From assembly GCA_951406725.2 (NCBI GenBank), contig OX597833.1:26908001-26972000 (forward strand): a stretch of 64,000 nt of DNA, in the 5' to 3' direction. Below the pieces are notes generated by a model that saw only the letters and a program-made list of their open reading frames with translations, had not been told where the DNA came from and did no database searches. The stretch comes from Octopus vulgaris. Taxonomy: Eukaryota. The translations under genes were made by a program, and so were the position numbers. The stretch's first letter is position 1. Each line of letters begins with the position of its first letter. Of the stretch, positions 38,025 through 64,000 are shown one piece after another.

Positions 38025-38172
38025 ATGCAAATATTCTTTTAAAAAACTTTTCTTTTAATTTTTCCAAAATATAATTGTTTTCCATACTTACAGCTGAAAA
38101 AGTCTTAATGATTGAAACCGGTACTGAAATGTTTTTTAGAAAAATATTTTAACATTTTCTCTCTTGACTTTT

Positions 38173-38175
<3 letters not shown>
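38025..38175 (+). mobile_element. Family 3 hammerhead-bearing tail (decayed hammerhead at 38091-38126)
   Basis: Homologous to 55355-55505; CAG-CTGAAAA-AGTCT(TAA)TGATT-GAAA-CCGG-TA-CTG; ends at CT/TA tract. Confidence 0.7.
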
Positions 38176-38226
<51 letters not shown>

Positions 38227-42977: not shown

Positions 42978-44030
42978 CAGGCTGAGTAAAAAGTAAGCAG
43001 CGTTTGAACCATGAAATTCATAACAATATATTTCAACAATGCGAAAATTCTATTCATCAAAACTTATTTTGATGAATAGAATTTTCGCATTACAATCATT
43101 ACAATCAACACATTTTTGCCAACGAGTTACATGTTTGTTTATTTCGGTAAGATAAAATCTGAAGGTCTGGAGCTGATGAACTCTTTGAACGCTCTTTCAG
43201 CATTGGTTTGAACTGCATCTCTCGCAGGAAACTGTCACAGTGCTTGAAAGAGTAATAGTCGGTAGGAGAAAGGTCTGGGGAATAACCTGGCAGGAGAAGA
43301 ACTTCGTAGCCAAGTTCCATCAATTTCTGAAGCTTCATTAGTGAACCGAGTGGTCGAGCATTGTCATGAAGTATGATATGATTAGTTCTCTTCTGTCGAC
43401 CAGTCTTAGATGGAGGAGTAGCAGTTCGTTCATTTTGGCCATTTAATGGCAATGTTTCTGCAGTAATGGTTCTTCCGGGTTTTAAGAAGTTATAGTGAAT
43501 GAGTCCTGCAGCATACCACCAAACAGTCACCAAAACCTTCCTTTTGAAGAGCTCGCATTCAGGGAAGGATTTTGGTGCTTCATTTTGGTCCAACCATTGC
43601 GAAGAACGATTTTTATTATTGTACATAATCCACTTTTCATCGCAAGTTACAATACGATCGAGAAATGGATCGGTCTGGTTAAGGAGAAGCGACGAGTAAA
43701 TTTCATTCAAATCGTGTGATACCCATTTGTCGAGCATTTTTGATTTTTCCATCGCATGCAAATTGCTGCAGGCAGTTTTCTGGCTAACTTGAAGTTCTTT
43801 TGCCAGTTCTCGGGTGGTTTACGTGAATATTTCTCATTGAGAGTCTTTAATTGACCGTCATCGATGACGTTTAAAGGATTTTCGAACTGACTACTTACTG
43901 GTCTTTTCCTCAACAAACGTTTCGCTGATATCGCGAGCAGTTTCAGTTGCTTTACGTCCTTTATTGAAAGTAAAGTTGCTCGAATATCGCGTTTTGACTT
44001 TTTCATTTTAGATTATTGTAACGATGGTGA
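42978..44030 (-). pseudogene. Mariner (Hsmar1/cecropia-like) transposase pseudogene with one TIR
   Basis: WVSHDL, PFLDRIVTCDEKWIMYNN, KVLVTVWWYAAGLIHYNFLKPG, ILHDNARP, YSPDLSPTDYY motifs with frameshifts; TA plus TIR caggctgagtaaaaagtaagc at 42976. Confidence 0.95.
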
Positions 44031-44179: not shown

Positions 44180-45120
44180 CTCAACCTGATAGTATAAATC
44201 CAAATATTCAGTTTACAGTGGAATACAGCAAAGAACAATTCCAATTTCTAGATACTTTATTTTTTAAAAGTCAACAATCAAATTGTAACCGATATTTGTC
44301 ATAAACTAACGGACTCGAAGCAATATCTTCTGTTTAGTTCATGCTACTTGAAACACATCAAAAGAAACATTCCTTTTGATTTAGCGAAAAGGATTTGAAC
44401 AATAGTGTTTGATGCAAATACTCGGGACCATCGACTTGAACAACGCTAGTCGAGAGACACTTTCCACTCTCACTTATAGAATTAAATGTGTCAAGAAAAT
44501 AGGCATAAAAATTCGAAGGGAAACAAAACGAGGCCCCAGACCTCAAAGTAAAAATACTGCCTTGTATATCAACACACAACCCTAGAAACAATGAGGCATA
44601 CAACACCATTATTTAAAATCTATCAATGCTTAGTAGGGATTGAAAGATTAACCCCATTCTACATACACATAAATACCAAATGTAAAAAAAAAAACACAAA
44701 TCACTAAAAAATCTACTGATAGATGCAACGGAATCAATAGTTAAAAACTGCAGACGTCCAAATTGTACAACATGCCTCAATCTACCGAAGGTTTCGGAAT
44801 TCCATTTCAAAAAAAGGACAGGGATTCACAATAAAGACCAATTTCACTTGTAAATCCGAAAATCTAATGTATGTGATAAATTGTTCAGGTTGTGGATACA
44901 ACTATATCAGCCAAACAAGGATGTCACTTAGAACTTCACGGCATGTCAGATCCGTTTCCCAAGTTATAGTCAGATACCATTGAGTCAACACACAGAGAGA
45001 TGTTCAGGATAACTCCTACCAAACTTCATAGTTTTTCCAATTAACAATTTTTATACAAGAAAGATTAAATAACAAACATATATTTATTGAAAAATACAAA
45101 CGACGCCAGAATATGAACGC
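44180..45120 (+). pseudogene. Decayed PLE (Neptune-like): RT thumb, Cys-rich linker and GIY-YIG
   Basis: SINPNIQFTVEYSKEQFQFLD; TDSKQYLLFSSC..HIKRNIPF; CRRPNCTTC; FTCKSENLMYVINCSGCGYNYISQT; many stops and frameshifts. Confidence 0.85.
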
Positions 45121-45734
45121 AGAGCCAATTTTGTTTTTTGTAAATATTTTTATTCATGAACGCGCTAAGCACATGCAACCACCGCTTTCTTCGCACATTC
45201 AAATTCTACCACAAATCCAAATGCCTAAACTACTACACAGTATATTTCCACAATACCCTTTAGTTAATTCCTAGTAATCTCATAAATTTATAAATCCTTA
45301 TCTGATCCCTCCTTCAGACTTGAAGATCATAATCATTTAATTATATATACGTATGTATGTATGTATGTATGTATTTATGTATGTATGTATGTATGTATGT
45401 ATGTATGTATGTATGTATCTATTTATCTCTCTATCTATCTACCTATCTATCTATCTATGTATGCGTGGTATATGTACATATCTGTGCAGGTGGGATAATA
45501 CATATGGATACACGTATTCATATGTGCGTGTATGTACATATATGTATGTATATATGATATATATATACGCGTACGTATATATATTTGAATGTGGCTAGGG
45601 ACAGGGCAGGGCGGTGGGGGTGTTACTGTTGCATTTAGCCCCAGGCGAACATCAACGTCACCAGAAAGGCTTGACACCATCACGGCGTCCTCTATCCTGC
45701 AAAGGGAGATCATCCACCGAAGAAGCAGAAGCCA

Positions 45735-45779
45735 CATACGGACCCAGGTTTCGAGGTGTTTGCCTCTCATCAACGTATG
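45735..45779 (-). ncRNA. Type I hammerhead ribozyme (UUGAUGA core)
   Basis: CATACG-TTGATGA-GAGG(CAAACA)CCTC-GAAA-CC(TG)GG-TC-CGTATG. Confidence 0.75.
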
Positions 45780-45987
45780 GTAGGCACCGCCCTTCGACGA
45801 ACGACTCTCTGTGCAGGATATTTATATAAAGATTTTCACGTAAATACATTTACTGGTGCAGGATATTTATATAAAGATTTTCACGTAAATACATTTACTG
45901 ATTTTCGAAATCAGTAAATGTATTTACGTGAAAATCTTTATATAAATATCCTGCACAGAAAGTCGTTCGTCGAAGGGCGGTGCCTAC

Positions 45988-46032
45988 CATACGTTGACGA
46001 GAGGCAAACACCTCGAAACCTGGGTCCGTATG
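45988..46032 (+). ncRNA. Type I hammerhead ribozyme (UUGACGA core)
   Basis: CATACG-TTGACGA-GAGG(CAAACA)CCTC-GAAA-CC(TG)GG-TC-CGTATG. Confidence 0.75.
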
Positions 46033-46269
46033 TGGCTTCCGCTTCTTCGGTGGATGATCTCCCTTTGCAGGATAGAGGACGCCGTGATGGTGTCAAGCCT
46101 TTCTGGTGACGTTGATGTTCGCCTGGGGCTAAATGCAACAGTAACACCCCCACCGCCCTGCCCTGTCCCTAGCCACATTCAAATGGCTAATGTCCCTTTT
46201 GTTATGGAGCAGTTACTGTCTATATCTCGTTTAGAGAATTATTATTGCTATATATATATATATATATAA

Positions 46270-58167: not shown

Positions 58168-58902
58168 TGTATGTATGTATGTATGTATGTATATACATAT
58201 GGAGATATACATTGTGGAGCGGCGAAAGTGTGTGTTTATGTACGTGTATACGTATGTATATAACTATACATAAGTGTGTGTATGTAAATATAAGTATATG
58301 TATGTATATATGTTTGTGAGCCTGTATGTGTGTTTATATGCGTGTGATGATATATGTATGTATATATGTGTATATGCACATGTATATAAGAGTATCTTGT
58401 CATATATGTGAGTACAATAGCCACTAAAAGATTTACGACCAACAAAAGCCCCTGACCGAGTTAGCCGGAATCACTGGTCCCTTGAATCACAGCGTGATAC
58501 TAGAATGGTAGGACATTTATCAAAGATTCTAATGACATCTATTTAACTCTCGTATGGGAGCGTGTGTGTGTACACAGGGCAGCAAGTGTACTTACTAACG
58601 CAAATAATGTTTTAATTTATTGTATGTTTTATTTCTATTTTTATTTTTCGTTTCTTTTTTTCTTAATTTTTTCCCTGGTTTGTCAATAAAGCTGCAACGG
58701 AAACCGTCCTTCACCATTCTTCTCTAACGGCTTAAACATACTGTTACTAACAACATGCTATATTAAAATCGAGTGAAACAGAATTTATACAACGAGATAT
58801 CCCTTATAACGTAACCTTAGAGATGCGTCTGCACAGACGTATGTACCACAACAAGTCGTACAGTGTTCCACTCGCTAGGGGTAGATGCAAGAGGTGTGTG
58901 AA

Positions 58903-59222
58903 GGCGCATGGCTCATTGGTTAGAGCATCCATCTCACAGTCATCAGGTAAGGATTTCGATTCTCACAACGGGTTGTGTGTTGTGTTCTTGAGCAAGACAC
59001 TTTATTTCACGTTGCTCCAGTTCACTCACCTGTAGGAAATGAGTTGCGACGTCACAGGTGCCAAGCTGTATCGGCCTTTGCCTTTCCCTCGGATAATAAT
59101 GGTGGCGGGGAGAGGGGAGGCTGGTATGCATGGGCAACTGCTGGTCTTGCATAATCAACCTTGCCTAGGAGGGAAACTTTCTAGGTACAATCCCATGGTA
59201 ATTCATGACCGAAGGGGGTCTT
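58903..59222 (+). mobile_element. SINE family C
   Basis: Homologous to 33409-33740. Confidence 0.85.
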
Positions 59223-59252
59223 TACCTTTTATCTTTTACATATATATATATA

Positions 59253-59295: not shown

Positions 59296-59331
<36 letters not shown>

Positions 59332-59548
59332 CAATAATAAATCTCTGAGCGAGATATAAACAGTAACTGCTCTATAACATAAGGGGGATCAGCCATCTGA
59401 ATGTGGTTGGGACAGGGCGGGGTGGTGGGGGTGTTACTGATGCATTTAGCCCCAGGCGATCATCAACGTCACCAGAAGGGCTGACACCATCTCGGTGTCC
59501 TTGCCAGCCTGCAAAGGGAGATCAGCCTCCCCGAAGATACGGATACTA

Positions 59549-59591
59549 CATACGGACCGGTTTCGAGGTATTTGCCTCTTATCAACGCATG
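59549..59591 (-). ncRNA. Minimal type I hammerhead, U3-A8 variant
   Basis: CATGCG-TTGATAA-GAGG(CAAATA)CCTC-GAAA-CCGG-TC-CGTATG. Confidence 0.8.
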
Positions 59592-59906
59592 GTAAGCACC
59601 GTTCTTCGTTGAGGACTTCCTCTACAGGCTGGATATATATGGATTTTCACAGTAACCACAGTCACTGATGTAGAAAAACCGTTCGACAACAATAATAAAT
59701 CTCTGAGCGAGATATAAACAGTAACTGCTCTATAACATAAGGAGGATCAGCCATCTAAATGTGGCTAGGGACAGGGCGGGTGGTGGGGGTGTTACTGATG
59801 CATTTAGCCCCAGGCGATCATCAACATCACCAGAAGGGCTGACACCATCTCGGTGTCCTTGCCAGCCTGCAAAGGGAGATCAGCCTCCCCGAAGATACGG
59901 ATACTA

Positions 59907-59949
59907 CATACGGACCGGTTTCGAGGTATTTGCCTCTTATCAACGCATG
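59907..59949 (-). ncRNA. Minimal type I hammerhead, U3-A8 variant (second copy)
   Basis: Identical to 59549-59591, 358 bp away. Confidence 0.8.
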
Positions 59950-59966
59950 GTAAGCACCGTTCTTCG

Positions 59967-60275
59967 TTGTAAGCCATTAAAGAAACACACAAAAGCCGTT
60001 CGATTCATTTCAACATTTAAGTTTAATTTGTCAAAATATTTTCGTCGCTTTAAGACTGCGACCTGTTCACTGACAAAAATCCGTGCTGCAGCAGTGAACA
60101 GGTCGCGGTCTTAAAGCGACGAAAATATTTTGACAAATTAAACTTAAATGTTGAAGTGAATCGAACGGCTTTTGTGTGTTTCTTAAATGGCTTACAAACA
60201 CCTTCCACGCTGCAATTGTTTTCGTTTCAGCACACGATCTCAGATCAAATCACTTGCTATGCAAGTACATCTCCG

Positions 60276-62780: not shown

Positions 62781-63622
62781 TCGGTTAAACACACATATTC
62801 TTTCCCTCGCACATATTTCATGTTACTTGATTCGCAGTGTACCTACACTTATATATGCATGTGTATGTGTGTGTGTATGTGTGTGTGGGTGTGTGTGAAG
62901 TCACATTCCTTCTTCGTGTTGCTGATCATTCGACTGAAATCATTTTCCCAATAACAAAGCAAAGCACATTTCTCCTTTATTTCATTTTCTTCCCTCCTTC
63001 TTTCCTTTTTTCTTCTTCTGTTCACTCTCAATTATTCTACTTTCTACACATTAAATATAATTTCTTAAAATCGATGTGAACATCAAACTAATTATTGTAA
63101 CTGGTTTTTACTTTGTAATCTGTGTCGTTATTTTTCGTGCTAATTTTGAAATTGTGTCTGTGTGTGCATATATACACACACGTGCGTGTGTGTGAGTGTG
63201 TGTGTGTGTGTGTGTATACAATCAAAATAAGCAAAAGGATACCAAGAAATGCTACAGTACGACCGTTTCAAGCGCTCCATTTAATTGAACAATGCAAGCA
63301 TTACATCAATTTAAATACAGTGCTATCATCAGCTGCACAAATAGAATTTTAATCAATTGGACACATTAATACAATTTTTCTCAAATACTTTAACAAAGCA
63401 AGAAGATGGAAGAAATCCATGTTGTCGCTATTGTATCTAAGAATATATTACACTTCCAAGAAAGGCATGAAGCTTACTGGGGTTATAGCTTGTAAAGGAT
63501 TGTGGTTCATTTCTAATTTATTTGTCTTTTATCAACTACTAAATCTAAGACTAGAGAGCTGTGTCTGTTTGGAACGAAGGGCAAGAATGAGTTGACAGTT
63601 GGCTATATATATATATATATAT

Positions 63623-64000
63623 AAGAGTTATCGCCAAGCTAATATGGCAGTCAATAAATATAAGACTATAGCTGCCGTTGATTAGCTCCAAGAGGCCATC
63701 GCCTCTAGCTAGCTATATGAAACACGCACCTGTGTCCATTATAACCTTCGAACAGGGGAAGTCAGCCGCTTCCCCTTGCTGGTCAGGCATCTGCAGACAT
63801 GTTTCAAGGTAACGGCAGCTATAGTCTTATATTTATGGACTGCCATATTAGCTTGGCGATAACTGTTCATTTCCAGTACCGCTGCCGTAGTCTCCTTCAG
63901 AGAGACTTAGAAATTTATATTTCTATTTTTGAAAACCAGTGGATGTATTCCACTGAAATTAGGTAAATAACCCTTCGAACAGACGGTCAGCAGCAACGCC
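63623..64000. mobile_element. TA-anchored element with a 54-bp inverted duplication and a half hammerhead
   Basis: 63626-63679 is the reverse complement of 63811-63864 (1 mismatch); minus strand GAAA-CATG-TC at 63796-63805. Confidence 0.7.

Follow-up and report, generated by a model that had tools for sequence, protein, structure and literature searches.

A hammerhead array on the minus strand

The window, i.e. the whole stretch of 64,000 nucleotides of the Octopus vulgaris genome that was analysed (contig OX597833.1), carries on its minus strand a single arm of 358-nt tandem units, which stops at a (TA)n tract on its 3' side and meets a palindromic repeat on its 5' side (Table 1). With monomer positions counted from the predicted cut, the arm is truncated 5' at position 302 and its 3' end lies at position 225 (end type 225). 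The two copies of the unit, 59330-59611 and 59688-59969, are spaced by 358 nt and 96% identical without gaps, with five differing positions over the 225 nt they have in common. The monomer has no LTR, a GC content of 0.48 (below 50%) and a longest ATG frame of 30 aa, in keeping with the non-coding nature given to it in the original prediction. A circular fold of the monomer is predicted to be 58% paired (z -4.2; 0/40 shuffles as good).

Table 1. Features of the retrozyme locus, in positions of the window
Feature	Position	Strand	Remarks
Whole retrozyme arm	59330..59969	-	640 nt, 1.8 units
Monomer of 358 nt between the predicted cuts	59555..59912	-	non-coding; stable self-paired circle in silico
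Upstream type I hammerhead with extended stem I	59901..59957	-	core UUGAUAA at 59943-59937; predicted cut 59913/59912
Downstream hammerhead, same as upstream	59543..59599	-	core at 59585-59579; predicted cut 59555/59554
PLE-type 'tail' of 43 nt	59330..59372	-	between the two fixed 3' ends of the family, monomer ~182 and ~225
(TA)n tract at the retrozyme 3' end	59299..59330	.	usual target of family A
Adjoining palindromic repeat	59967..60275	.	separate high-copy family outside the retrozyme unit; 3-nt overlap with the retrozyme 5' end

The two hammerheads are alike. Both have a 6-bp stem I (CAUGCG/CGUAUG, with one G-U), the core UUGAUAA, in which the 3-8 pair is U-A, a stem II GAGG/CCUC with the loop CAAAUA, then GAAA, the palindrome ACCGGU and a GUC triplet. 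The conserved core (positions 3-9, GAAA, UH), the three helices and the ends in helix I are those of a type I hammerhead. Sequence comparison thus bore out the original description of two identical minus-strand hammerheads of this type 358 nt apart with a U3-A8 core, and agrees with it on both predicted cuts.

When the 640-nt minus strand is folded as a whole, stems I and II form with pair probabilities of 0.78-1.0, and stem I extends beyond a small internal loop into a long helix. Because stem I goes on past this loop, the ribozyme has the canonical retrozyme build rather than the minimal PLE build that had been assigned to it at first; the canonical build with extended helix I and the minimal one are set apart in earlier work (PMC4209133). 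The isolated 56-nt motif folds no better than shuffled sequences (z -0.92; 37/200), and the 86-nt form with the extended stem beats them (z -2.8; 1/200).

An Rfam comparison, a genome-wide copy count and a covariation check had been suggested for these hammerheads. In the case of Rfam, no hammerhead was matched at E<=5 or at E<=10, which is a miss of the library and concerns no defining biochemical feature; the matches obtained were all of microRNA type, to hairpins and microsatellites. In the genome (2.8 Gb, 227 contigs), the 31-nt stretch from the core to GUC has 38 exact copies and a slightly degenerate hammerhead pattern has 217 matches, versus 0 for the reversed control in both cases. Ribozymes on both polarities, as in viroid-like circles, were looked for in a both-strand scan of the loci collected, and the motif was found on one strand of the unit only. 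Altogether, these are real type I hammerheads, for which self-cleavage is predicted. A further, short hammerhead-like motif (CUGAAGA...GAAACGUU, with a 3-bp stem I) lies at 114-150 of the window, in a repeat that is present at several other loci.

Dispersed copies and related families

A genome search with the monomer gave 2037 first-look candidates, the best 40 of which were at 92-100% identity. For this family, in the following called family A, 106 loci were fetched and 7 were dropped before counting, either for overlap (L022 and L026, which overlap L013) or as segmental duplicates (L021 and L149-L152), leaving 99 distinct loci; because they were chosen by the presence of a full unit or of an intact hammerhead, the set is biased towards long and well-kept copies. 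The group L148-L152 (contig C31, 12 Mb) consists of five copies of one family-A insertion with flanks in common, i.e. a segmental duplication. Arm lengths in family A range from 0.1 to 3.5 units, with 93 of 150 arms longer than one unit, and at 25 of the 99 loci, the window locus included, two whole hammerheads are found in one arm. The window element is one insertion of this dispersed non-coding family and not a local duplication, so that the 'tandem duplication' of the original prediction has to be read as an inserted copy of 1.8 units.

Three related families were compared with family A. Family B (360 nt, 78% to A, core CCGAYGA) shows 97-100% identity among its copies and is very young and probably recently active. 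Its core carries U4C, and its stem II has a U-U pair at the base; this U10.1-U11.1 mismatch and U4C, like U3-A8, are among the variants listed by Perreault et al. (2011, PMC3088659). Arrays of family B (loci L007:1906-3185, L177 and L178; contig C2 near 57.27-57.30 Mb) reach 10.9 units at 98-99% identity, some of the long ones being mosaic for haplotypes, and two large two-armed arrays of ~17 units each are in the match list. The antisense strand of the B monomer folds well too (z -4.2). Family C has a period of about 360 and the core UUGAUAA. In the tree it is attached by a long branch only, BLAST finds no match between it and A, and its kinship is one of build and motifs; an inverted copy lies at 63617-64000 and runs off the end of the window. 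Family D, with about 85% identity among copies, has the textbook core CUGAUGA, and its tail is 93% identical to that of A over 41 nt, the tail being the best-conserved part between distant families.

The hammerhead alignment comprises 28 hammerheads of these four families. Catalytic positions are invariant throughout, and 94.9% of the alignment cells pair, versus 24-48% when the structure is slid. Compensatory double changes were found in 13 of the 19 hammerhead pairs, C3-G8/U3-A8 included. The covariation score was reached in 0/500 shuffles, a control that related sequences can beat, the structure being drawn from the same sequences. Stem III is a different self-complementary sequence in each of the four families, with duplex energies of -4.6 to -11.2 kcal/mol, as expected if cleavage needs a dimer. 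Judged from these comparisons of sequence, the ribozyme is under selection.

Regarding the 3-8 pair, the 26 distinct rows of the alignment hold U-A in 13 cases, C-G in 12 and an unpaired combination in 1. Over the related families of this genome, positions 3 and 8 show C-G, U-G, U-A and C-A, and the order of these changes is not separated by the tree. It is these four pyrimidine-purine combinations within one genome that distinguish the relatives of family A from the variants of PMC3088659. A C3-A8 subfamily of A, forming one clade, has amplified (10 among the first 100 listed of the 217 matches), and an inverted two-arm copy of a further related family at 45583-46249 of the window, 85-90% identical to A and B, has the core UUGAYGA with a U3-G8 wobble. 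Thus, the element can spread without a Watson-Crick pair at 3-8, which speaks against a strict need for catalysis. The same two-arm copy has a longer stem III and, according to the tandem finder, a 45-nt duplication at its centre.

Insertion footprint and template

The 3' ends of family A arms fall near 182 in 85 cases, near 225 in 55 and elsewhere in 8 (n=148), i.e. 140 arms stop at either of two fixed positions with 43 nt between them. Inverted pairs were found at 47 loci, always with both 3' ends outward, and 41 of them combine one end of each kind. The 5' ends are scattered across the whole unit, giving variable 5' truncation and partial tandems. A TA-rich flank is present on at least one side at 66/99 loci; among the 33 loci without TA flanks, 15 show target duplications of 8-14 nt, versus 94/2000 mismatched pairs. 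In the case of the sister family B the same two-end pattern lies at 178 and 222, with 42 of 53 arms exact, and an intact RT-GIY-YIG element of the same genome has two ends 40 nt apart.

In an anole PLE, the tail is delimited by two internal RT start sites (Frangieh et al., PMC11167929), and Craig et al. describe PLEs with partial tandems and an inverted 5'-truncated copy, with a 30-40-bp tail at one end. Because the two-end pattern of family A matches both the two RT starts of the anole element and the inverted arms and tail of PLEs, it counts for PLE mobilisation, for which two fixed 3' ends 30-50 nt apart, 5' truncation, partial tandems and an inverted arm are the marks, all of them present here. 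It is very probable that the retrozyme was moved by PLE machinery. The assignment to PLE-mobilised non-LTR retrozymes, already put forward in the original prediction, is supported by the fixed ends, the inverted arms and the target duplications.

With Schistosoma Cercyon (PMC4209133) and anole Poseidon (PMC11167929), family A has in common two internal 3' ends, inverted 5'-truncated arms and microsatellite targets, and the pLTR hammerheads of these PLEs are likewise type I, with palindromic stem III and, in Cercyon, U3-A8. In contrast to them, family A has no ORF, an extended helix I and a repeat unit that makes up the whole element. Metazoan non-LTR retrozymes (Cervera and de la Pena 2020, PMC7229834) are, like family A, non-coding tandem units (170-400 nt) with one type I hammerhead each, in PLE-bearing genomes, with a 6-bp helix I, a 4-bp helix II and a short palindromic helix III; a GC content below 50%, a self-paired monomer and, where present, target duplications of >4 bp are also found in both. 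Their circles have been shown in coral, mussel and axolotl (PMC7229834; review PMC7761336), in mussel with retrozymes of 350-390 nt (PMC7229834). Family A differs in its U3-A8 core, and its cleavage and circles are predicted. The available text of PMC7229834 names PLEs solely as candidate partners and describes neither two fixed 3' ends nor inverted arms.

The insertions would be best explained by the following steps. A minus-strand transcript would run across two units, and a monomer would be released only from arms with two whole hammerheads. These would pair their palindromic stems III and cut after GUC as a dimer, and a host ligase, as suggested by published retrozymes, would close the monomer. 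As read from the DNA footprint, a PLE endonuclease would then nick an AT-rich or (TA)n site, and the PLE RT would start at two internal points 43 nt apart and far from the cut, one per arm, copying backwards through the junction for 0.1-3.5 units (to 10.9 in the sister family). The two 5'-truncated products would be joined head to head, or one would be left alone. With moderate confidence, we thus describe the element as a non-LTR retrozyme that is mobilised in trans by a PLE, with predicted self-cleavage as a dimer and a likely circular monomer as template.

Several observations bear on this template. The cut site is crossed by 122 of 148 arms, and the 5' end lies exactly at the cut in 0/142 arms; therefore, the RT did not simply run once along a linear monomer that had been cut. 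A pile-up of 5' ends at the cut was considered as a sign of cleavage in vivo and rejected (12/142 in a 17-nt window vs ~7 if even). Units diverge by 1.7% in tandem and 1.5% between arms, compared to 5.3% between loci, and rare variants are in common in 21/271 tandem and 23/249 between-arm comparisons, compared to 52/9219 between loci. Likewise, 167 of 203 A units are nearer to their own locus than to 90% of the other loci; the same test is weak in B (78/138). No exact inherited inversion junction was found among the 47 insertions and no common 5' flank among 50 single-arm loci. Two junctions of the 47 are near-shared, within 3 nt; they belong to different subfamilies and were taken as chance. 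The adjoining palindromic family differs in this respect, its central junction being the same in its copies. Altogether, these data speak for one monomer that was copied repeatedly, a circle being the simplest case.

Private variants were also followed at the level of single units. Variants private to a locus and present in all units and both arms amount to 5 cases (2 in A, 3 in B), single-unit private variants to 54/62 in A and 48/62 in B (102/124), and blocks confined to one arm to 10, the reference having 8 units and the two longest B arrays being perhaps counted incompletely. The single-unit variants and one-arm blocks point to DNA-level duplication after insertion. No variant in this test marks terminal versus inner units. 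One all-unit variant has 7 matches in the genome, 5 in its own array and 2 at a locus of another haplotype, and the genome-wide search found it in no other array of its own haplotype. A second candidate for a private variant was discarded as a subfamily marker (737 genome matches).

Overall, we consider a circular template rather likely. It is less likely that a PLE-mobilised repeat was copied from uncut linear multimers, or with the RT jumping from one linear monomer to the next, and that later DNA duplication made the arrays longer, with a hammerhead that is weak or serves only for 5' trimming, and no circle. In vitro, the anole PLE works mainly from uncut RNA and has no need of hammerhead cleavage (PMC11167929); reading through the cut is also expected from uncut RNA, the C3-A8 and U3-G8 subfamilies have spread, and variant blocks within one arm as well as mosaic arrays are consistent with such a route. 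However, it would lead one to expect inherited junctions, flanks or unit-specific differences, none of which was found. Daughters should also shorten, yet arrays to 10.9 units at 98-99% identity exist, and the preservation of the palindromic stem III and the other helices by compensatory change speaks against it as well. Alternatives to a circle may be jumps of the RT between templates, multimers that start at an internal promoter and stay uncut, and duplication of DNA at a later time.

Starting from the circular monomer, a wider picture can be proposed, more tentatively: the families might be the record of a PLE RT copying a ribozyme-made circle round and round from two internal starts, one per arm. 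They might then be long-lived RNA parasites with a conserved tail of their own, unrelated to the pLTR of the host PLE, in which the 3-8 pair has drifted among C-G, U-G, U-A and C-A. If true, rolling-circle retrotransposition of an animal retrozyme would be testable in vitro with the intact PLE ORFs and the 99%-identical sister family, and family A offers a test bed for the question whether the retrozyme template is a circle. No RNA run with the unit was listed among 24 runs. Contigs from four runs guessed to be RNA (X1, X5, X9 and X10, from four studies with two organism labels) cover parts of the unit, and the longest (313 nt) spans the cut site with near identity; such contigs may be DNA, give no strand, ends, level or circularity, and carry no weight here.

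Partner elements and neighbouring repeats

An RT plus GIY-YIG ORF flanked by the unit was searched for, and none was continuous with the unit among the loci analysed. A search for the GIY-YIG family gave 148 matches among 150 scored, and intact PLE ORFs are present in the genome; in the PLE families sampled, they have no sequence in common with the unit. As far as these sequences indicate, the retrozyme unit is non-autonomous.

One intact PLE (L074:244-5460, contig C6) is young and has many near-identical copies. A 479-aa upstream frame overlaps its 781-aa RT-GIY-YIG frame, and its 504-bp direct repeats contain a U3-A8 hammerhead. We call this element Neptune-like, a label given from its zinc-finger linker and TA targets, not from a tree. 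At least two autonomous PLE families of this genome have U3-A8 hammerheads in their pLTRs, and the variant is common among the unrelated PLE hammerheads of the genome. The 3' end of another PLE family (L003:400-1130) has the hammerhead core UUGAAAA and the same ACCGGU palindrome, and a relative with CUGAAAA lies at ~38070-38190 of the window. Within the window there are also a decayed PLE RT-EN fragment (44188-45051, 30% to the L074 protein) and, at ~43100-43818, what is presumably a mariner-like transposase fragment, labelled from a translated motif.

In view of these elements, the unit could be the pseudo-LTR of an autonomous PLE outside the sample, with the loci as its 5'-truncated remains, which we consider improbable. 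Every insertion mark is of PLE type, PLE pLTRs of the same genome carry U3-A8 hammerheads, Xenopus retrozymes match pLTRs (bioRxiv 10.64898/2026.07.22.740005), and the 99 loci were chosen for an intact hammerhead or full unit. Against this, long arms run 5' into further units, never into a 3' UTR or an ORF. PLE fragments were detected by tblastn with PLE proteins near 8 of 104 loci, and the 7 that were inspected are set apart by (TA)n or other repeats. The unit also has no likeness to 30 GIY-YIG loci, 10 full ORF loci and the 3' regions at 45 PLE ORF ends. An ordinary PLE pLTR, with copies always attached to an RT ORF, was the case that the original prediction had named against itself; no RT ORF is attached at the loci analysed. 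A hammerhead-like motif that arose by chance in a satellite or local tandem duplication, with which the poor fold of the 56-nt motif alone and the lack of an Rfam hammerhead match would agree, is refuted by the 217 matches, i.e. hundreds of dispersed copies, by their fixed arm ends and target duplications, and by four-family covariation with invariant catalytic positions.

For animal retrozymes in general, Li, Clavereau and Pollet (bioRxiv 10.64898/2026.07.22.740005) use their co-occurrence with PLEs and their homology to pLTRs to argue for a non-autonomous derivation from PLEs; of nine Xenopus retrozyme dimers in their preprint, one was cleaved in vitro and eight were not. The partner class, the similar unit lengths and the mostly short arrays are common to their elements and family A. 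The available text of the preprint samples no mollusc and has 0 occurrences of 'tail', whereas in octopus there is an insertion footprint and no pLTR homology was found.

Regarding novelty, the original prediction had suggested that the family, with its variant core, may be undescribed. The core itself is not new: U3-A8 is a natural hammerhead variant active in vitro (Perreault et al. 2011, PMC3088659), has about 1,300 occurrences in Schistosoma, where it is known from the Cercyon PLE hammerheads (PMC4209133), and is common in the PLEs of this genome. The kind of element, an animal retrozyme, is also in print, and it is family A itself that may well be unnamed. No octopus hammerhead or retrozyme is described in the literature searched; repeat databases or hammerhead lists in supplements, for instance those of PMC7229834, PMC4209133 and PMC13282606, may already include family A. 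The words 'hammerhead', 'ribozyme' and 'retrozyme' do not occur in the main text of PMC13282606, an annotation of octopus repeats from 2026. Searches based on CUGANGA or Rfam miss whole retrozyme families. The useful part is the insertion anatomy that ties retrozymes to the two-start mechanism of PLEs, together with the way the inverted arms divide the tail between them and with the young sister family. To the question which enzyme moves animal retrozymes, a PLE two-start tail split in this way gives an answer in the form of a mechanistic footprint. Nothing points to a host function.

The palindrome next to the retrozyme was considered as a part of it and rejected, as it forms its own family (1422 first-look candidates) and was nearby in 1 of the other first 27 loci. 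In other copies of the palindrome the left arm is ~22 nt longer, one side is extended by ~50 nt, and there are apparent target duplications of 10-13 nt; because of these features, this repeat may be PLE-mobilised too. It joins the retrozyme 5' end over CAA, with (TA)n outside both, and palindrome and retrozyme are possibly one composite insertion from two templates. To the left of the (TA)n tract, at 58890-59230, lies a very abundant SINE-like repeat, to which by far the most run contigs map.
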